Assembly (NCBI GenBank): GCA_030611385.1
Contig: JAUWPV010000002.1
Location: 15,433-79,432 of the forward strand
DNA from: Bacillota bacterium
GTDB lineage: Bacteria > Bacillota > Dethiobacteria > DTU022
Reading direction: 5' to 3'
Length of the DNA stretch: 64,000 nt
Part shown: positions 12,054 through 64,000 of the stretch, piece after piece
Numbering within the stretch: position 1 is the stretch's first letter
Layout: each line of letters begins with the position of its first letter
Translations under genes and position numbers: made by a program
The notes under the pieces: generated by a model
The model's input: the letters and a program-made list of their open reading frames with translations, nothing else
What the model was told of the DNA's origin: nothing
Databases searched by the model: none

Positions 12054-12147
12054 GGGAGTAGTTAGCGGCCTGGTGGCGCTCCTGGACTTCAAATCCTGTG
12101 GCAGGGCATCCCCCTGCGGTGGGTTCGATTCCCATCTACTCCCGCCA
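12054..12147 (+). tRNA. selC: tRNA-Sec (selenocysteine tRNA, anticodon UCA)
   Basis: 94 nt. 8-bp acceptor stem GGGAGTAG/CTACTCCC, 5-bp T-stem with a TTCGATT loop, anticodon loop CU-UCA-AA, 6-bp long variable arm GCAGGG/CCCTGC, discriminator G and CCA end. Confidence 0.8.
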
Positions 12148-15428: not shown

Positions 15429-15436
15429 AGGGGTGA

Positions 15437-53888: not shown

Positions 53889-56314
53889 GTCTTCGCGGTA
53901 AACAGTGGGTCTGGCCTGATCATAAGTATGATCAGGTGATTGAGCTTGCCCGAAACCTCAAACTTCCATCTGCCCTGGCCCGGTTGCTGATCAACCGCGG
54001 GATTGAAGATCCTGTGCAGGCCAGGGCGTTTTTATCCCCCTCGGCAGACCAATTTTATCCTCCATGGTTAATGCTGGGCATGGAACAGGCAGTCAGGAGA
54101 CTGCTTGAAGCCATCTCTAAAAATGAAAGAATTATGATCCATGGGGATTATGACGCTGACGGTATTGCTGCTTCAGTAATTATGGTTGAAACATTGCAGC
54201 AGCTCGGAGGTACCGTTGATTACTTTCTGCCCAGCCGTTTCGACGAGGGTTATGGTTTGCATATTGATCCCTTGAATCAGTTCAGGGAAACCGGAGTTAC
54301 GCTGGTGGTAACTGTCGATTGCGGTATCAATGCTGCTGAAGAAGTCTCCCATGCCGCTAAAATCGGGCTTGACCTGATTGTTACCGATCACCATCAACCG
54401 CTTGGTCAGCTCCAGGGGGCAGTTTCAGTTATTAACCCTCTGCAAAAAAATTGTTTATACCCCTTTAAAGAGCTTTCTGGAGCGGGGGTTGCTTTTAAAC
54501 TTGCTACAGCCCTGATGGAAAAGTCCGGCTGTTCCTTTCCGACTCATTTGCTGGATCTGGCTGCCCTGGGTACAGCCGCTGATGTGGTTCCCTTGCTTGC
54601 CGAAAACCGGGTTATTGTTTCTGCCGGCCTCGCTGTCTTGCGTGATCTGCAGCGGGTTGGTTTTAAAGCACTGGCTGAAGCAGTCAACCTTGATCAAGAT
54701 CGTATCAACAGCACTGCTCTTTCTTATATTCTGGCCCCGGCAGTCAATGCCGCCGGGCGGATGGGTGAAGCTCTGCCGGCAGCAAAGCTGCTGCTGGAAA
54801 AAGATGCGGCAAAAGCAGCGGATTTGGCCGCATATCTGCACAGGACAAATCAATTACGCCGGGCCACAGAACTTAAGATCCTTAAGGAGGCTGAAGAGGC
54901 CGCCCTCGATTTGCTGGCGACAGATAACCAGGGCATTATCACTCTGGCCGGTACGAACTGGCATCATGGTGTGATCGGCATTGTCGCCTCTCGTCTGGTA
55001 GAGAAATTTAACCGACCAGTTGCCATGATTGCCATTGAAGGCGAAGAAGGGCGCGGATCGGCACGCAGCATTCCCGGTTTCGATATAACTGCCGCCCTGG
55101 CTGAAAATGCTTCTCTCCTGGATCGTTTTGGTGGTCATGAGCAGGCGGCGGGATTTACCATTAAGGGTGACAACATTGGCAATCTGCGCGCTAGTTTGAA
55201 TCAATACGCCCATCTTAACTTGAAAGACAAACAATTTAATGCCAGGTTATATATTGAAGCGGAACTGGATGAAGCAGAAATTGATTTTGACCTGACTGCC
55301 AATCTCGAACAGCTGCAGCCTTTCGGCACGGCTAACCCCGTTCCGCTTTTTGGAAGCCGGGACTGGGAGGTAAAATCCTGGCGCCTGGTTGGTGCAGATC
55401 AGCGGCACCTGAAACTTAAGGTTCTAAAGGGTAAGCGGATCTTAACACCAATATTTTTTTCCGGATCAGACCTTGTACCGTATTTAGAAGAAGGTCGCCA
55501 TGTCGATCTTGCCTTCAAGTTGAAAAACGGATTCTTCAGGAATGAGAAGACCCTTGAAGTTGAAATTAAAGATTTAAGCTACAGTGATTGCTTTTCAAAC
55601 AGCATAATGGAACTGATTGACCGGCGAGGCTGTCAGGATCGCTCCAGCTGTTTAGAGGGCGGAATTCTTAAGCAAAAAGAGGCACAGATGGCAGTTTTTG
55701 TTTCGACCCTTTCCCGGCTGAAAAAAATCGAGAAGAGCGGCTTAAACGGAATGCATCCCTGTTTTATCACCAGCGGGTCATTTAATAACTCCCCTGAACT
55801 GCCGCCCGAATTAGATACAATTGTCATTTACGATTTGCCTCTCCATGAGGGTATCCTGCAGCCTGTTTTTGAAAAGTGTTTCTCAAATGGCTCTGTGACC
55901 GTTTATTTGCTTTATAGTGATGATGATCTCGAACGAAACTGCCTGCTCCTGGATCACTCCCTGCCGACGGAGCAGCAGCTCATGGAAATATTAACCGCCC
56001 TGGTCGGGGTAGCAACAGAAAATAACGACTTAAGCTTACCCGGGCCGGTTGCCGGAATCCTTGGATTCACGCCTGTCCCCAATTTTTGGGAGCGTGTAAC
56101 AAAAATATTTACCGAAATTGGTTTGCTCGAGAATAACCAACTCTCCCCGGATTGGAAAAGGATCGAAGAATCATGGCTCAAATGTTTAGATTTATCTCCC
56201 ACCCATCTTGCCACCAGGGAATTGCGTAATAACTGCGAACAATTTCAAAAGCTGCTTCTGGAAGGTAGCCTTGAAGAAATCGCTGCCCGTTTGAACAATT
56301 TATCAGGCTGCTGA
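53885..56314 (+). CDS. recJ: Single-stranded-DNA-specific exonuclease RecJ (DHH/DHHA1)
   Basis: DHH motifs (HGDYDADG, DHH) and C-terminal OB-fold region. Confidence 0.85.
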   Translation: MSLRGKQWVWPDHKYDQVIELARNLKLPSALARLLINRGIEDPVQARAFLSPSADQFYPPWLMLGMEQAVRRLLEAISKNERIMIHGDYDADGIAASVIMVETLQQLGGTVDYFLPSRFDEGYGLHIDPLNQFRETGVTLVVTVDCGINAAEEVSHAAKIGLDLIVTDHHQPLGQLQGAVSVINPLQKNCLYPFKELSGAGVAFKLATALMEKSGCSFPTHLLDLAALGTAADVVPLLAENRVIVSAGLAVLRDLQRVGFKALAEAVNLDQDRINSTALSYILAPAVNAAGRMGEALPAAKLLLEKDAAKAADLAAYLHRTNQLRRATELKILKEAEEAALDLLATDNQGIITLAGTNWHHGVIGIVASRLVEKFNRPVAMIAIEGEEGRGSARSIPGFDITAALAENASLLDRFGGHEQAAGFTIKGDNIGNLRASLNQYAHLNLKDKQFNARLYIEAELDEAEIDFDLTANLEQLQPFGTANPVPLFGSRDWEVKSWRLVGADQRHLKLKVLKGKRILTPIFFSGSDLVPYLEEGRHVDLAFKLKNGFFRNEKTLEVEIKDLSYSDCFSNSIMELIDRRGCQDRSSCLEGGILKQKEAQMAVFVSTLSRLKKIEKSGLNGMHPCFITSGSFNNSPELPPELDTIVIYDLPLHEGILQPVFEKCFSNGSVTVYLLYSDDDLERNCLLLDHSLPTEQQLMEILTALVGVATENNDLSLPGPVAGILGFTPVPNFWERVTKIFTEIGLLENNQLSPDWKRIEESWLKCLDLSPTHLATRELRNNCEQFQKLLLEGSLEEIAARLNNLSGC

Positions 56315-56427
56315 CAGTTAGTGTAAAGCTACTGTAGGGGCACCCTATAGAATTTAGAACCTTATTTTGGTATTATAGATTATAAGTTTTCTGACTCCTG
56401 AATTCTATTCTTCCGAGGGAAAAAGCT

Positions 56428-58617
56428 ATGGTTGTAAAAGAAACAAAACTCAGCGATCTGAAAAAAAGAATCCAGCGCTACTATCCCGATCTGGAAGATT
56501 GGGACATGGTCGAAAAAGCTTATAATTATTCAATGAAAGCCCATTCCGGACAGATGCGTGAATCCGGTGAAACCTTTATTAGCCATCCTCTCGGCGTCGT
56601 GATGATCCTCGCTGAGCTCGAGATTGACCTGATTACCATTATTGCCGGACTGCTGCATGATGTGGTTGAAGATACCGACATTACCCTGGAAGAAATCAGA
56701 CAGGAATTTGGCGATGATGTGGCTGCTTTGGTTGATGGTGTAACCAAGCTGAGCCGGCTAGACTTTACCTCCAGGGAAGAGCAACAGGCGGAAACACTGC
56801 GTAAAATGTTTATAGCCATGGCTCAGGATATTCGGGTAGTTTTGATCAAGCTGGCCGACCGGACCCATAATCTGCGCACTCTTCGTTATCTCAATACTTT
56901 CAAACAAAAAGAGATTGCCCGGGAAACTCTGGAAATATATGCTCCGTTGGCTCACCGCCTCGGCATCTATATGATCAAATGGGAGCTTGAAGATCTTGCT
57001 TTTCGCTATATGCAACCTACAGAGTATTTTCAACTGGTTGAGAAATTGGATAAGAAAAGAAAAGAGCGTGAGCATTTTATCAACCAGATTATCCGGGTTT
57101 TACAGGATCAGCTTGCTGAAGCATCGATCGAAGCAGAAATTCAGGGCCGTCCCAAGCATCTTTTCAGTATTTATAATAAAATGAAAACTCAGGACAAAGA
57201 ATTAAGTGAGATCTATGACCTGACTGCGGTTCGGATTATTGTTAATTCGGTGAAAGACTGCTATCATACCCTCGGCATAGTCCATACAATCTGGAAACCG
57301 ATTCCCGGCCGTTTTAAAGATTTTATTGCCATGCCTAAACCTAACATGTACCAGTCTCTGCACACCACGGTTTTCGCCGCCGAGAACGAACTGGCTGAAA
57401 TTCAAATCAGAACATTGGAAATGCACCGCACTGCTGAGTATGGCATTGCTGCCCACTGGCGTTATAAAGAGAAGATCAAAAATTCCGGAGAGCTCGATGA
57501 TAAACTGACCTGGCTGCGCCAACTGCTCGAGTGGCAACATGATTACCGTGATGCCCGCGAGTTTATCCGGGAAATCAAAGGAGATCTCTTTACCGACGAA
57601 GTTTTTGTTTTCACGCCGAAGGGTGATGTCATCGATCTGCCTGCTGGCTCAGTTACACTTGATTTTGCTTACCGGATTCATACCGATATTGGCAACCGCT
57701 GTACCGGAGCCCGGATCAATGGGCGTCTTGTTCAGCTCAGTTATCAATTAAAGACCGGTGATATGGTCGAGGTAGTCACTTCCAAGCAGGGCTCGCCGAG
57801 TCGTGACTGGCTTAACTATGTTAAAACCTCCCATGCCAAGAATAAAATCCGCACCTGGTTTAAAAAAGAACGCCGTGATGAGAATATTGAAAAAGGTCGT
57901 GAAATGATTGAGAGAGAGATCAGGCGGATCAATGTCGAACAGCGTATTTTACTGAAAAGCGATCTGTTTGAAGATGTCGGGATTACCTTTAACCTGATGT
58001 CAGTTGAAGACCTCTATGCTGCTGTCGGCTATGGTGGAATTTCGGTTCATCAGGTAATCAGCCGCCTGCGGGAGGAGTATAATCGCAAACGTACCGATAA
58101 AGAACAGGGAGAGGATGATTTACCGGAACTTAAACTGGTTAAGCATTTCAAGCAGGCTACTCAGGGTGTTTCCGTTCAGGGTATGGACAACCTGCTGATG
58201 AGGGTTGCCCGCTGTTGCAACCCTGTTCCAGGCGACGAGATAGTTGGCTTGATTACCCGCGGGAGGGGTGTTTCTATTCACCGCCGCGATTGTCCCAACA
58301 TTCTCCAATACCAGGGAGAAAGCGGACGTTTATTGGAAGCATCCTGGGATGTAGAAGCTGGTATTTCGTATCCGGTTGGGATTGAGGTTGATGCCAATGA
58401 TCGTAAGAATCTGCTGGCCGATGTTATGATAACGGTAAACGAAAGCAAGGTCGAAATAACTGCTGTCTCAGCCCGGATCGATAAAAATAGAAACGCCACT
58501 ATCCATATGACCTTGATTGTGCGCGATCAGGTTCATCTCGATCAGATTATGAGCAAGATTAAAAAGGTCAACGAAGTTTACTCCGTTCGCCGTTATGTTT
58601 ACGGTTCGAATAACTAA
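56428..58617 (+). CDS. relA: Bifunctional (p)ppGpp synthetase/hydrolase RelA/SpoT
   Basis: 729 aa; HD hydrolase, synthetase, TGS and ACT domains in order. Confidence 0.9.
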   Translation: MVVKETKLSDLKKRIQRYYPDLEDWDMVEKAYNYSMKAHSGQMRESGETFISHPLGVVMILAELEIDLITIIAGLLHDVVEDTDITLEEIRQEFGDDVAALVDGVTKLSRLDFTSREEQQAETLRKMFIAMAQDIRVVLIKLADRTHNLRTLRYLNTFKQKEIARETLEIYAPLAHRLGIYMIKWELEDLAFRYMQPTEYFQLVEKLDKKRKEREHFINQIIRVLQDQLAEASIEAEIQGRPKHLFSIYNKMKTQDKELSEIYDLTAVRIIVNSVKDCYHTLGIVHTIWKPIPGRFKDFIAMPKPNMYQSLHTTVFAAENELAEIQIRTLEMHRTAEYGIAAHWRYKEKIKNSGELDDKLTWLRQLLEWQHDYRDAREFIREIKGDLFTDEVFVFTPKGDVIDLPAGSVTLDFAYRIHTDIGNRCTGARINGRLVQLSYQLKTGDMVEVVTSKQGSPSRDWLNYVKTSHAKNKIRTWFKKERRDENIEKGREMIEREIRRINVEQRILLKSDLFEDVGITFNLMSVEDLYAAVGYGGISVHQVISRLREEYNRKRTDKEQGEDDLPELKLVKHFKQATQGVSVQGMDNLLMRVARCCNPVPGDEIVGLITRGRGVSIHRRDCPNILQYQGESGRLLEASWDVEAGISYPVGIEVDANDRKNLLADVMITVNESKVEITAVSARIDKNRNATIHMTLIVRDQVHLDQIMSKIKKVNEVYSVRRYVYGSNN

Positions 58618-58855
58618 TGTTGTGTACATGCCTGCTACCGTAGGGTACAATAAGGTGGAATATTATAACTGCTCAGACTGAGCAGGCGGAAGGGCTCTAC
58701 GATCATTTTTGCCAAAGCCAGCACAGCTGCGGTATACTATTGGCTACAGGCCGCTTCCAGGTAAATATGCGCATTATTGTCGACAATGATGGCCCGGTTA
58801 CAATGATACTCGACAGCAAAAAGCAATTTTAAGAGAATTGGAGAGGAAAACGAAG

Positions 58856-61800
58856 ATGAACTACAAGGCACCCCGCGGAACACGCGACATATTACCGGAT
58901 GAATCAATGAAATGGCAACACCTTGAAGAGAGATTCAGGGATTTCTGCAATCTCTATGGTTTTGGGGAAATCAGAACCCCTATTTTTGAACAAACTGATC
59001 TTTTTATTCGCAGTGTCGGTGAAGAGAGCGACATTGTTTCGAAAGAGATGTATTCTTTCAAGGACCGCAGTGGCCGCGAACTAACATTACGCCCCGAGCT
59101 GACCGCCGCCGTAGCGCGGGCCTATCTTGAACATAACCTTAACGAGCAGCCGCAGCCGATCAAACTATATTACAGTGGACCGATGTTTCGTTATGACCGA
59201 CCCCAGGCCGGCCGTTACCGCCAGTTCCATCAATTTGGACTGGAGATCTTCGGGGCAGCCAATGCCGTTGCCGATGCTGAAATAATTGCTTTCTGCTATC
59301 ATTTCTTTAAATCATTGCAGATTGAAAATCTATCAATCGAACTGAACAGTGTCGGCTGCCCGGCCTGCCGCCCCCAATTTCGAGATATTCTGGTACCTTA
59401 CCTTGAAAACATTGAAAAGGGTCTCTGTTCCGACTGTATCAAACGCTATAAGCATAACCCGATGCGTGTTCTTGATTGCAAACAGGAAAGCTGCCAGATC
59501 CAGGTAGAAACAGCACCAAGAATGTCCGATCATCTGTGTCCCGACTGTGACCGTCATTTTATAGCTCTCAAAGAGCTGTTGACCAGACTACAGATTCCTT
59601 ATAATCTGAGCAGCCGGCTTGTACGCGGCCTCGATTACTATACCAGGACCGCTTTTGAAGTTGTTGCCGGTGATTTGGGCGCCCAGGCTTCATTATGCGG
59701 CGGCGGGCGCTACGATCACCTGGTAGAGCATTGCGGCGGGCCGCATACGCCTGGAGTGGGAGTTGCTTTTGGCGTTGAGAGAATCATACTGAGTATGGAC
59801 TGGAGCAAGCAGATGCCTGAGCCCCGGTCGTCGGTCTATCTAGCCACTGCCGGTGAGAATTTGGAAGGGGAATCTTTACTCCTGGCTTCCGAACTGCGGC
59901 AGCGTAATATCGCAGTCGATACCGAATTGATGGAACGCAGTCTCAAAGCGCAGATGAAGTATGCCGGAAAGCATAACTGCAAATATGTTGTGATCATCGG
60001 TGAAGATGAAATTGCCAGCGGCCGGGTAACCCTGCGTGATATGGAAAGCGGAGACCAACAGGAACTGACCCGTGAAGCTGTTTTCGAGCTGCTGATCAAA
60101 GACGAACCTGTATCAAAAGAAGAGCCTGCTTCGCCCACCGGGGCAGAAGTCATACTGCCTTCAAAGGGTAAACCGACGCAGAAAAGCCACTACTGTGGAT
60201 TGCTGAATTTGAGTGATGTTAACAATACTGTTAAGCTGGCCGGTTGGGTCGGCAGGCGCCGCGACCACGGCGGGTTGATCTTTATTGATTTAAGAGATCG
60301 CAGTGGTATGATGCAGCTGGTATTCGATCAGAAACTGGGTGTTGAACTTTTCAATCAGAGTGAGAGCCTGCGTAATGAATATGTAGTCGCTGTCGAGGGG
60401 AAGGTTGTCAAAAGATCCGCGGATAATATTAATCCATCTCTGCCAACTGGTGAAATCGAAGTGCGGGTTGCTAATATGGAAATATTAAACAGCTCGAAAA
60501 CACCGCCTTTCTATATCGAAGATAATCTTAATGTTGATGAAAACCTGCGCCTGCGTTACCGCTATCTTGATTTGAGGCGCCCGGAAATGTTAAATCGTCT
60601 TATGCTGCGTCACCGTGCGGTCAAGCTTGTTCGCGACTACATGGATCGCTTCGACTTTTTAGAAGTGGAGACGCCAATGCTGACCCGCAGCACACCGGAA
60701 GGCGCACGGGACTTCCTTGTGCCCAGTCGCCCTCATCCGGGCTTTTTTTACGCTCTGCCTCAATCACCGCAGCTGTTCAAGCAGCTGCTGATGGTCAGTG
60801 GCCTGGAGCGCTATTTTCAAATTGTCCGTTGTTTTCGGGATGAAGATTTACGGGCAGACCGACAGCCGGAATTTACCCAGGTTGATATCGAAACTTCCTT
60901 TTTCGGCAGCGAGAACCTTTTTGCCCTGATCGAAGGGTTGATGGAGCTGTTGTGGAAAGAGATTCATGGTGTTGAGCTTGAACTGCCTTTCCTGCGCATG
61001 CCTTATAAGGAAGCGATGGAACGGTTTGGCTCTGACAAGCCTGACCTGCGCTTTGCCATGGAACTGGTTGATATCGGTGAGCTGGCCGCAAAAAGCGCTT
61101 TCAGGGTTTTTACTACTGCCCTCGAAAACGGCGGAGTGGTCAAAGGTCTGCGTATACCCGGTGGTAGCCGCTTTAGCCGCAAGGAATTGGATGACCTGAC
61201 TTTGCTGGCCCGACAGCTCGGTGCCAAAGGACTGGCCTGGACTTATATTGAAGATAGCGGTTGGCGTTCGCCGATCGTTAAGTACTTCGATCCGGTTTTA
61301 CTTGATCAAATCAGTGCAAAAATGCAGGCTGAACCGGGTGATGTTCTGCTCTTTGTTGCCGACCGCCGGGAAACCACCTGCCAGGTGTTGGGTAGCCTGC
61401 GCCGCCATCTGGCCCCGGAAAATATTTCTGATGAACCAAATTTCCTCTGGGTGGTCGACTTCCCACTTTTTCACTTTAATGAAGCGGAACAGCGCTGTGA
61501 TTCAGATCACCACCCCTTTACTGCGCCCCGGGTTGAGGATATGCCTCTGCTGGAAAGCGATCCCCTTGCTGTACGTGCTCAGGCTTACGATCTGGTGCTG
61601 AACGGAGTGGAACTTGGCGGAGGCAGCACCAGAATTCACGACAGCGAAACTCAGGCCAAAATCTTTAAACTACTCGGGCTGTCGGAAGAAGAGAGTCGGG
61701 AAAAATTCGGTTTTCTGCTGGAAGCTCTTTCATTTGGAGCACCGCCGCATGGTGGAATTGCTCTTGGTCTCGACAGACTGGTCGCTCTATTAACCGGTGA

Positions 61801-61945
61801 TGAATCGATCCGACAGGTCATTCCCTTTCCCAAAACGGCTGCGGCCAACTGCCTGATGACCGGCGCCCCGGCTTTTGTAGAGACCAGCCAACTGGATGAA
61901 CTAAAAATTCAACTGCAACCGCAGGAAGAGGAAGAAGTAAAGTAA
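58856..61945 (+). CDS. hisS-aspS: Single in-frame ORF encoding histidyl-tRNA synthetase (residues ~1-415) joined by a ~28-aa Pro/Glu/Lys/Ser linker to aspartyl-tRNA synthetase (~586 aa): an apparent HisRS-AspRS fusion
   Basis: ATG at 58856, 9 nt after GGAGAGG. HisRS motifs up to ...RVTLRDMESGDQQELTREAVFELLIKD. There is no stop codon and no ATG/GTG/TTG start before the AspRS N-terminus (SHYCGLLNLSDV..., GWVGRRRDHGGLIFIDLRDRSG). Confidence 0.7.
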   Translation: MNYKAPRGTRDILPDESMKWQHLEERFRDFCNLYGFGEIRTPIFEQTDLFIRSVGEESDIVSKEMYSFKDRSGRELTLRPELTAAVARAYLEHNLNEQPQPIKLYYSGPMFRYDRPQAGRYRQFHQFGLEIFGAANAVADAEIIAFCYHFFKSLQIENLSIELNSVGCPACRPQFRDILVPYLENIEKGLCSDCIKRYKHNPMRVLDCKQESCQIQVETAPRMSDHLCPDCDRHFIALKELLTRLQIPYNLSSRLVRGLDYYTRTAFEVVAGDLGAQASLCGGGRYDHLVEHCGGPHTPGVGVAFGVERIILSMDWSKQMPEPRSSVYLATAGENLEGESLLLASELRQRNIAVDTELMERSLKAQMKYAGKHNCKYVVIIGEDEIASGRVTLRDMESGDQQELTREAVFELLIKDEPVSKEEPASPTGAEVILPSKGKPTQKSHYCGLLNLSDVNNTVKLAGWVGRRRDHGGLIFIDLRDRSGMMQLVFDQKLGVELFNQSESLRNEYVVAVEGKVVKRSADNINPSLPTGEIEVRVANMEILNSSKTPPFYIEDNLNVDENLRLRYRYLDLRRPEMLNRLMLRHRAVKLVRDYMDRFDFLEVETPMLTRSTPEGARDFLVPSRPHPGFFYALPQSPQLFKQLLMVSGLERYFQIVRCFRDEDLRADRQPEFTQVDIETSFFGSENLFALIEGLMELLWKEIHGVELELPFLRMPYKEAMERFGSDKPDLRFAMELVDIGELAAKSAFRVFTTALENGGVVKGLRIPGGSRFSRKELDDLTLLARQLGAKGLAWTYIEDSGWRSPIVKYFDPVLLDQISAKMQAEPGDVLLFVADRRETTCQVLGSLRRHLAPENISDEPNFLWVVDFPLFHFNEAEQRCDSDHHPFTAPRVEDMPLLESDPLAVRAQAYDLVLNGVELGGGSTRIHDSETQAKIFKLLGLSEEESREKFGFLLEALSFGAPPHGGIALGLDRLVALLTGDESIRQVIPFPKTAAANCLMTGAPAFVETSQLDELKIQLQPQEEEEVK

Positions 61946-62261
61946 TTCTTGCGCCAGAATCGGTTTTATGCTATCATTTTTATAGAGGCAGCTTGATAAT
62001 TACGAGCTTAGCCCTGCTGTGTTCGTGACAACCGATTAAGTTTTGAGCTAACACTTTTTATATGGGAACCCGTACTTCAGCTGCAGCGTAGCAGCCTTTG
62101 TAAAGAGGACCTATAAACCAGTTGAGAAGGTACCCACCTTTCGGGGGAACAGTTCAAAACAACGGCCCACGGCACGGCGGGGTTTTTTAATGCCTTTCAG
62201 CGTGTTATAAACTGAGTTGTTTAACCGTGATTGTCTTGTTTTATGCAGGGAGGTGAGAGCA
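61946..62261 (+). promoter_or_regulatory. 316-nt ORF-free structured leader upstream of mgtE ending in a GC-rich hairpin plus GGGGTTTTTT; possible Mg2+-responsive attenuator (M-box not confirmed)
   Basis: Position upstream of mgtE, GC-rich inverted repeats, and a terminal T-run (about 62170-62190). Confidence 0.3.
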
Positions 62262-63587
62262 TTGTCTGTTGAAAATATTTATCTGCAAATTAACAGGGAA
62301 TTGAAGGAAGGCGCTCATCCGAGTGATCTTCACGACCTGATTGAAGAGCTGGATATCGGGCAAAAAGTGGAGCTGATGCAGCGGTTGGCTGATACCGATG
62401 CGGCTCTCATCTTGCAGGAAATGGAGGATTATGAGCAGGCCGATATTCTCCGGCTCTTGAGCAAAGAGCGAGCCAAGGAAATTCTGAAAAACCTGGCTTC
62501 TGACGATGCTGCTGACCTGATCGGCGAATTGTCTGTAGAAGAAGCCCAGGAAATGCTGCAGTTGATCGAGGAAGAAGAGGAGTCGCTGGATTTAGGCGAA
62601 CTCTTGAAATACCCGGAAGATAGTGCCGGGGGGATTATGACAACCGAGTACATCTCACTTCCCGCCGATATTCCGGTGGAAGATGCCATTGCCCGGTTAA
62701 GAGAAGTTGCTCCCAAAGCAGAAACCATTTATTACGTCTACGTTGTTGACGAAGAAGGACTCCTGATCGGGGTGCTTTCCCTCCGCGACCTGATTGCTTC
62801 TTCTGACGGCACCCTGCTGAAAAACATCATGCGCCATAATGTGATCAGTGTTAATGCCGGGCTTGACCAGGAGGAAGTAGCGCGGATCGTTTCTAAGTAC
62901 GATCTGCTGGCTGTGCCGGTTGTTGATGATCAGGAGAGAATGCTCGGTATCGTTACCGTTGACGACGTCATTGATGTCTTGGAGCAGGAAGCGACTGAAG
63001 ATATTTACCACCTGGCCGGAGCCAGTGAAATTGAAGGGATGGAACTAACCGAGGCTCCGGTGAACAAAGTTGTCCGCCTTCGACTACCCTGGCTGTTGAT
63101 CACCATGATTGGCGGTGTCATCTCCGGAAGCGTTATCGGGGTCTACAAAGACACTCTGGAAGCGATCGTCATGCTGGCTATTTTTATTCCTGTGGTTATG
63201 GGCATGGGCGGCAATGTTGGCACCCAATCATCGACAATATTTATACGCGGACTAGCGACCGGTGAAATCGATCGTTCAGAAGTCTGGCCATATTTTTTCC
63301 GGGAAATCAAGATTGGCGTGGTTATGGGCGTTATTTGCGGGATATTGATTTCGATTACTGCATTTATCTGGCAGGGCAATCCTTATCTCGGTTTAGTTGT
63401 TGGCTTATCAATGCTGATTACAATCAGTGTGGCTACCATGATCGGTACACTCGTTCCCCTTTTGCTAAATAAAGTCAATATAGATCCGGCGATTACCGCC
63501 GGTCCGTTTGTGACTATGATCAAAGATTTCACTGGTCTTGTGATCTACTTCGGTATCGCCTCTATCTTCCTCAAACACCTGCGCTAA
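62262..63587 (+). CDS. mgtE: Magnesium transporter MgtE (MgtE-N, CBS pair, 5-TM pore domain)
   Basis: TTG start 6 nt after GGAGGTG. Domain order typical of MgtE. Confidence 0.8.
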   Translation: MSVENIYLQINRELKEGAHPSDLHDLIEELDIGQKVELMQRLADTDAALILQEMEDYEQADILRLLSKERAKEILKNLASDDAADLIGELSVEEAQEMLQLIEEEEESLDLGELLKYPEDSAGGIMTTEYISLPADIPVEDAIARLREVAPKAETIYYVYVVDEEGLLIGVLSLRDLIASSDGTLLKNIMRHNVISVNAGLDQEEVARIVSKYDLLAVPVVDDQERMLGIVTVDDVIDVLEQEATEDIYHLAGASEIEGMELTEAPVNKVVRLRLPWLLITMIGGVISGSVIGVYKDTLEAIVMLAIFIPVVMGMGGNVGTQSSTIFIRGLATGEIDRSEVWPYFFREIKIGVVMGVICGILISITAFIWQGNPYLGLVVGLSMLITISVATMIGTLVPLLLNKVNIDPAITAGPFVTMIKDFTGLVIYFGIASIFLKHLR

Positions 63588-63593
63588 GTAAAT

Positions 63594-63635
63594 CAGGAGT
63601 CAGGAGTCAGGATTCAGGATTCAGGGGTCAGAATT
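63594..63635 (+). repeat. Six tandem 7-bp units (CAGGAGT x2, CAGGATT x2, CAGGGGT, CAGAATT) immediately after the mgtE stop
   Basis: Read directly. A complementary CTGACTCCTG lies about 110 nt downstream (63713-63722). Confidence 0.6.
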
Positions 63636-63877
63636 AAAACTAAATATTTAAAGCTAAACAGATCAAAGCAGGCCAAAATCAACACCCTGTTTTTTTTGTG
63701 TTTTGTTTTATACTGACTCCTGCCTCTTCCACACAGCCGATCTTCCAAACAAATCATCAAGAGTATTATGGAAATATATGTCTAAATTGCATGTATTTTA
63801 TGGTTAATCTTCTCATTTTTATAATTATTTTTTATATTTTAGCAGGAATATGTAAATAAAGGTTGAAAAATAAAGGA

Positions 63878-63915
63878 AAGTGGTGTAAAGTGGTGAAAAG
63901 TGGTTGTAAGTGTCT
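63878..63915 (+). promoter_or_regulatory. MraZ-box-like direct repeats (GTGGTG / GTGGTG / GTGGTT / GTG at 10-bp period) in the mraZ promoter region
   Basis: aaGTGGTGtaaaGTGGTGaaaaGTGGTTgtaaGTG read directly; 20 nt upstream of the mraZ ATG. Confidence 0.55.
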
Positions 63916-63932
63916 CAAACGGAGGCGAACAG

Positions 63933-64000
63933 ATGTTTACAGGTGAATATCAGCATTCTCTGGATGGAAAGGGAAGGGTCATCATTCCTTCGCGCCTGCG
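63933..64000 (+). CDS. mraZ: Transcriptional regulator MraZ (5' fragment; continues past the window)
   Basis: MFTGEYQHSLDGKGRVIIPSRL matches the MraZ N-terminus. RBS GGAGG 7 nt upstream. Confidence 0.6.
   Translation, partial: MFTGEYQHSLDGKGRVIIPSRL

Follow-up and report, generated by a model that had tools for sequence, protein, structure and literature searches.

Does the single open reading frame (ORF) that joins hisS and aspS, the genes of histidyl- and aspartyl-tRNA synthetase (HisRS and AspRS), encode a genuine bifunctional enzyme, or was a stop codon lost in one assembly? This question is raised by positions 58856..61945 (+ strand) of a 64,000-nucleotide stretch of a Bacillota bacterium genome (assembly GCA_030611385.1, contig JAUWPV010000002.1, forward-strand positions 15,433 to 79,432; hereafter, the window). 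A preliminary description of the locus, made from the sequence alone, had put forward both possibilities: a bifunctional HisRS–AspRS, or else a stop that was lost or an error in sequencing. The data assembled here support the former: the modules are complete, the fusion is kept in all close orthologues, and the gene very probably encodes a genuine, evolutionarily retained fusion, i.e., one chain of ~115 kDa composed of a catalytically competent HisRS, a flexible tether and a bacterial-type AspRS.

Reading Frame and Domain Composition of the Fused Protein

The fused hisS::aspS gene is a single uninterrupted frame of the + strand, which extends in the ORF list from TTG 58838 to 61945; counted from ATG 58856, it contains 1029 codons and a stop, as had been described, and its assignment is supported by the ORF list, Pfam, NCBIfam and full-length homologues. 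ATG 58856 is likely the start of the gene, because a Shine–Dalgarno (SD)-like sequence, GGAGAGG, read directly at 58840..58846 (+), lies 9 nt upstream of it and the N-terminus MxYKAPRGTRD is common to all homologues. The upstream TTG 58838 overlaps GGAGAGG and receives no support from the N-termini of the homologues.

The HisRS half contains a class IIa catalytic domain (aa 8–310, 58877..59785, +; PF13393, 6.5e-47) and a complete C-terminal anticodon-binding domain, HGTP_anticodon (aa 327–414, 59834..60097, +; PF03129, profile positions 2–92 of 94). The AspRS half contains an N-terminal OB-fold anticodon-binding domain (aa 459–544, 60230..60487, +; PF01336) and a class IIb catalytic core (aa 561–994, 60536..61837, +; PF00152, 8.8e-122), within which the bacterial GAD insertion is located (aa 752–845, 61109..61390, +; PF02938, 8.5e-23). 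According to the NCBIfam models, the first half passed the hisS equivalog TIGR00442 with 523 bits (cut-off 286.75), and the second half passed both NF001750 (832 bits, cut-off 443) and TIGR00459 (747, cut-off 373.85). The window protein remained below the cut-offs of the hisZ model TIGR00443 (184 bits versus 271.65) and of the archaeal/ND-type AspRS model TIGR00458 (199 versus 368).

The residues R112, RGLDYY 257–262, GGGRYD 282–287 and E308–R309 of the HisRS half were present and were invariant or nearly so in alignments of 56 and 45 sequences; the histidine-binding signatures RGLDYY and GGRYD, together with the class II motif 2/3 arginines, define a HisRS. In the AspRS half, QSPQ 636–639, RDED 661–664, H885–H886 and D973–R974 were invariant across the alignments. 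Comparison with solved structures showed that aa 4–412 align with residues 3–417 of 420 in the Staphylococcus aureus HisRS (1qe0), and that aa 442–1019 align with residues 2/3–577 of the Thermus-type AspRS structures 6hhv and 1efw, so that homology to AspRS begins at aa 442, which matches residue 2–3 of the solved AspRS chains. No part is missing at the fused ends: a full HisRS is followed by ~28 extra residues and by a full AspRS from residue 2 or 3.

Equally strong purifying selection is indicated on both enzyme halves, because the dN/dS ratio was ~0.06 in each of them (Nei–Gojobori, seven DNA sequences; dS is largely saturated and the values are approximate). The mean frequency of the majority residue in the enzyme domains was 0.69–0.84 among 45 clade members.

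Conservation of the Fusion in Related Bacteria

A search of 5.8 billion proteins, clustered at 90% identity, revealed about 95 clusters of fused homologues of 1022–1051 aa, which had the same seven Pfam domains and were from 97% down to 61% identical to the window protein over 99–100% of its length. These clusters were drawn from four independent sources, namely, NCBI, JGI, ENA and Logan assemblies. A protein identical to that of the window is on record in both NCBI and Logan, copies with 97% identity are found in ENA assemblies, and another fused protein (P0006) occurs in identical form on four contigs, two JGI samples being among them.

A check at the DNA level, which is independent of gene callers, found the fusion in 15/15 close relatives. 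A single frame was present in each of four species-representative genomes (L001–L004), which are metagenome-assembled genomes (MAGs) named Syntrophomonadaceae or Bacillota bacterium, two of them from soda-lake sediment. When metagenomes were scanned using the junction as the query, all 11 close relatives (L092–L102) proved to be fused; most of these carry contig names (SL_5KL/SL_8KL_010_SED) that we read as soda-lake sediment metagenomes. In the comparison of orthologous loci that the preliminary description had proposed, every close orthologue was fused, and a stop, an SD sequence and a start were found between the genes only in more distant relatives (L083, L084). This is the opposite of the pattern expected of an error, in which orthologues would have a stop and a start that are mutated in this assembly only. 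As judged from these loci, an entire group of uncultured soda-lake Firmicutes has retained the fusion.

It should be noted that a 596-aa AspRS with 78% identity (P0092) was considered as a possible unfused close relative and was rejected as a gene-calling artefact on a fused ORF of 1032 aa; a fused ORF of this size was found at the DNA level in locus L081.

The Linker between the Two Enzymes

The inter-enzyme linker of ~28 aa (aa 415–443, 60098..60184, +) contains no stop, SD sequence or canonical start. The junction reads ...ELLIKD-EPVSKEEPASPTGAEVILPSKGKPTQKS-HYCGLL..., and the linker is rich in A/P/G/E/S. The passage from the HisRS anticodon-binding domain into AspRS without a stop, and the linker sequence itself (aa 417–444, nt 60104–60187), are exactly as quoted in the preliminary description. 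Among 45 clade members, the length of the linker ranged from 18 to 40 aa, the frame was always kept and a stop was never found, while the mean majority-residue frequency was 0.35. The dN/dS ratio of the linker, estimated approximately from the same seven sequences with largely saturated dS, was ~0.5–0.8 versus ~0.06 in the enzymes. The linker thus appears to be constrained mainly to remain open and in frame.

A semi-conserved patch, AEVxLP, is located within the linker (aa 430–435, 60143..60160, +). According to column counts in the 45 sequences (A 23, E 21, V 26, L 27, P 32), it was shared by the majority of the main clade, and it was also found in the metagenome loci L092–L101. In an AlphaFold2 (AF2) model built from the 45-sequence alignment, the predicted local distance difference test (pLDDT) score was below 50 at aa 416–429 and 434–438, which is consistent with a flexible tether and with nothing beyond that.

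The absence of an independent aspS start, claimed earlier, held on inspection: in-frame ATG, GTG and TTG codons were absent between aa 405 and 448, and 60090–60200 contained nothing resembling an SD sequence. The first in-frame TTG is at aa 449 (60200), downstream of the conserved HYCG and without an SD sequence. The linker holds only the rare start codons ATA 60152 and CTG 60155; in homologues, the rare-start position is occupied by I, V, K, E, T or R, so that a start-capable codon is not conserved.

Separate Genes in Distant Relatives and Probable Origin of the Fusion

As had been stated for Firmicutes, in which the two genes are normally neighbours without being joined, hisS and aspS were separate in 58/58 more distant genome loci (within L005–L080) and in 66 metagenome loci, i.e., in 124 loci. 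The usual Bacillota neighbourhood of this locus is secDF-recJ-relA-dtd-hisS-aspS, followed by 6S RNA and mgtE. In half of the unfused genome loci (29/58; by chance, about one in three would be expected), the two genes lie in the same frame, and a single in-frame stop is all that separates them in 17/58; consequently, one substitution would suffice to produce the same fusion in many Clostridia. Synteny is retained in L083 and L084, the closest relatives that are truly unfused, and both have GGAGG-type SD sequences and TTG starts. In L083, two in-frame stops (the TGA of hisS and a TAA further on) are found with the SD sequence GGAGGGGG and a TTG start. In L084, aspS begins with a TTG directly after the TAA of hisS and in the same frame, and its SD sequence lies inside the 3' end of hisS; from such an arrangement one substitution makes a fusion.

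The most likely history is a stop loss followed by a ratchet, because half of the unfused genome loci are in the same frame and 17 of the 58 are parted by one stop. The stop of hisS would have been lost in an ancestor with abutting, same-frame hisS and aspS, as is still the case in L084; the ribosome-binding site and start of aspS would then have decayed, which would lock the fusion in and make reversal difficult.

Phylogeny and Distribution

Phylogenetic analysis was performed using simple neighbour-joining (NJ) distance trees of HisRS and of concatenated sequences (100 bootstraps). The well-supported main fused clade combined 39 sequences, that of the window among them (bootstrap 94), and P0071–P0087 formed another fused clade (bootstrap 100). 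Unfused lineages were placed between the fused clades, namely, L083, a group of stand-alone HisRS sequences (P0281–P0285, P0293) and the loci L087/L088, which contain hisS alone. The larger group holding all of these had a bootstrap of 81 in the HisRS tree, and the fused sequences together with L083 had a bootstrap of 100 in the concatenated tree. The position of unfused lineages among the fused ones implies either repeated fusion or a fusion with later fission or loss, two histories between which distance trees do not discriminate.

The hisS genes that stand alone (L087 4001..5269; L088/L089 4001..5257) were 60–62% identical to the HisRS half of the window protein. In the L087/L088 lineage, hisS is flanked by relA-dtd and mraZ, with a ParE/RHH toxin–antitoxin pair and an SH3-amidase gene between dtd and hisS. 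Neither aspS nor a remnant of it was found between hisS and mraZ in L087, L088 and L089; the aspS of this lineage must be located elsewhere or be of another type.

Four fused singletons were found outside the larger group in unrelated gene neighbourhoods (P0093, P0094, P0095 and L119; at the locus level, L082 5001..8093, L090 4001..7096, L091 4001..7150 and L119). They were 34–59% identical to the halves of the window protein, their neighbours included trehalose synthase, rpsF-rpsR-rplI and amtB-glnB, and they may be independent events or assembly errors. On a global scale, the architecture is rare: an exhaustive phmmer scan, which covered 1.84 billion representatives at 50% identity, gave among its best 150 matches one fused protein (P0071, the top match) and 149 others, nearly all of which were stand-alone AspRS of ~600 aa and none of which was a full-length match.

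A separate observation concerns five long database entries (P0098, P0101, P0103, P0104 and P0111; 900–1050 aa, high-GC), in which the HGTP anticodon-binding domain is missing and the junctions are Arg/Ala-rich. These features suggest that high-GC genomes were read through in the wrong frame, and not that the fusions are true.

Proposed Organization of the Protein and Alternative Explanations

In the proposed scheme, one transcript and one initiation at 58856 would yield a chain of 115 kDa in which two independent class II active sites are combined with two anticodon-binding domains. AspRS would be made only within the fused protein, because no internal initiation signal was found, and the intact polypeptide probably has both activities. 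Because each of the two enzymes is a homodimer in other organisms, their fusion would be expected to assemble into a closed dimer of dimers or else into open chains. A fixed 1:1 stoichiometry would be the simplest functional consequence of the fusion; no further function is indicated by the data.

Several observations weigh against this reading or against parts of it. The AF2 model of the whole protein was poor (pLDDT 64, predicted template modelling score (pTM) 0.40) and is uninformative on the packing of the modules or on a closed dimer. Monophyly of all fused sequences was recovered in 0/100 (HisRS) and 8/100 (concatenated) NJ bootstraps; on these trees, a single origin as the sole history is rejected, and the simple history of one stop loss is incomplete. 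The metaproteome supplements of a paper on soda-lake syntrophic acetate oxidisers contained no aminoacyl-tRNA synthetase entries (PMC6295475). Finally, the hisS/aspS copy content of the clade was viewed at the level of the locus.

A more far-reaching proposal is that the fusion is adaptive and not the result of a neutral ratchet. The protein would then be joined through its two homodimer interfaces into a defined (HisRS–AspRS)2 particle, a minimal bacterial multi-synthetase complex in which AEVxLP docks on one of the modules, and selection would have favoured the fusion several times over, in independent events among haloalkaliphilic anaerobic Bacillota, e.g., for an obligatory 1:1 dosage or for joint handling of tRNA-His and tRNA-Asp. 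These are two of the four tRNAs with GUN anticodons (the queuosine family). The proposal is speculative, and we consider it rather unlikely.

It is improbable that the frame is fused and two enzymes are made all the same, either by internal initiation (at ATA 60152, CTG 60155 or TTG 60200) or by proteolysis of the linker. A poorly conserved linker that is predicted to be disordered would be accessible to proteases, the AEVxLP patch could in principle be a processing site, and the NCBI pipeline placed an AspRS start at an ATT inside the linker of L081. However, no known processing motif was identified, the region 60090–60200 has no SD-like motif, in contrast to the strong SD sequences of unfused relatives, the residue at the candidate start varies across homologues as described above, and a start at TTG 60200 would delete the conserved N-terminus K(S/T)HYCG.

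It is very unlikely that one half only is active and that the other is a regulatory or tRNA-sensing pseudo-enzyme, comparable to HisZ or to the HisRS-like domain of GCN2, with a stand-alone copy elsewhere in the genome. Non-catalytic HisRS paralogues are well known, and the window protein gave partial matches to HisZ; moreover, the analysis covered the locus and its surroundings within the window. Nevertheless, the hisZ score was below its cut-off and the hisS score far above its own, the anticodon-binding domain is complete, RGLDYY, GGGRYD and the motif 2/3 arginines are invariant, dN/dS is equal in both halves, and the gene occupies the orthologous relA-dtd-hisS-aspS position. An assembly or sequencing artefact, in which this assembly alone would have lost a stop or frameshift that separates hisS from aspS, can be dismissed with near certainty: one base change would suffice at loci with a single in-frame stop, and the five long database entries mentioned above resemble frame errors, yet the same fusion recurs in ~95 clusters across unrelated projects and assemblers, in all 15 close relatives at the DNA level and in identical proteins from NCBI and Logan, with linkers whose lengths vary in steps of three nucleotides and which are free of stops throughout.

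Comparison with Known Synthetase Fusions

The genuine fusion of two complete synthetases, which is the reading preferred here, was compared with known systems. The AARS Online review lists EPRS and the double-length TyrRS of parasites as isoforms with two catalytic domains, of which EPRS is the one supplying two different amino acids (PMC11580382). The window protein resembles metazoan EPRS in that two complete synthetase modules of different specificity are joined in one polypeptide by a non-catalytic linker. EPRS, however, is a eukaryotic protein that combines a class I GluRS with a class II ProRS through structured WHEP repeats and resides in a multi-synthetase complex, whereas the window protein is bacterial, combines two class II enzymes of the homodimeric type through a short, variable and probably disordered tether, and is encoded where the two genes were already neighbours. 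No match to the WHEP domain was present among the seven Pfam families found in the window protein. Thus, HisRS–AspRS shares the kind of architecture seen in EPRS, but it is outside the EPRS family and is not homologous to it.

In its genomic setting, the fused gene corresponds to the separate hisS–aspS pair of Bacillota, with the same two enzymes in the same order, the same recJ-relA-dtd-hisS-aspS neighbourhood and 6S RNA downstream; in the separate pair, a stop and usually an SD sequence and a start lie between the genes, whereas all three are absent in the window and its clade. Bacterial synthetases are known to tolerate added terminal domains, as in AspRS–GatC (NF009460), where AspRS is fused to a pathway partner, in LysX (MprF–LysRS, NF002821) and in GlyRS of a fused (alpha-beta)2 form. 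These proteins are similar to the window protein in this respect, but in each of them the synthetase is fused either with a partner that is not a synthetase or with its own second subunit, and none combines synthetases of two specificities, as is the case here. The window protein was below the cut-offs of the corresponding models: it scored 624 bits with NF009460 (cut-off 1379), with only the AspRS part aligned (positions 23–615 of 723), and 133 bits with NF002821 (cut-off 742).

A scan of NCBIfam release 20 revealed no match to a bifunctional HisRS/AspRS model. No description of a HisRS–AspRS fusion was found in the full-text literature and reviews searched, a coverage outside which most subscription journals lie, and the fusion is provisionally regarded as undescribed so far. 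Together with the single fused cluster among the best 150 phmmer matches, this bears out the earlier remark that such a protein is unusual for bacteria. The HisRS–AspRS fusion is real and conserved, but it does not amount to a new mechanism. Two different aminoacyl-tRNA synthetases are very rarely fused in nature, and HisRS–AspRS is a second, independent and much simpler case beside EPRS. It offers a case for the study of stop loss between in-frame neighbours, of lock-in by decay of the internal start, and of two obligate homodimers on one chain, and it is of interest to synthetase specialists and for annotation.

With regard to annotation, NCBI names fused proteins of 1027–1035 aa merely 'aspartate--tRNA ligase'. 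In GCA_051748445.1 (L081 4693..7791, JBNJHL010000003.1), the sole gene call is an AspRS of 596 aa that begins at an ATT in the linker, and the HisRS half has no gene call in that stretch. In these soda-lake MAGs, hisS could be wrongly scored as missing, which would affect estimates of genome completeness and metabolic inferences.

Genomic Surroundings

Between relA and the fused gene, the window contains a C-terminal remnant of dtd, the gene of D-aminoacyl-tRNA deacylase (58683..58829, +; tblastn and translation), which comprises 49 residues, corresponding to residues 101–149 only. The gene appears to be truncated or pseudogenised in the source genome, because relatives (L081, L083–L086) have an intact 149-aa dtd at the same spot; no other dtd was found within the window. 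Downstream, a 6S RNA gene (62008..62187, +; Rfam RF00013, 99.6 bits versus a gathering score of 46.4) begins 62 nt past the stop of the fused gene and is followed by mgtE (62217..63587). A T-box or other leader upstream of the fused gene was considered and rejected, the Rfam search of 55000–64000 at E ≤ 1 having returned 6S RNA only; in relatives, 25 nt lie between dtd and the start of the fused gene, which leaves no room for a T-box. Elsewhere in the window, a tRNA-Sec gene with the anticodon TCA is located at 12054..12147 (+; Rfam 70 bits, also detected by ARAGORN), and therefore the use of selenocysteine is implied.

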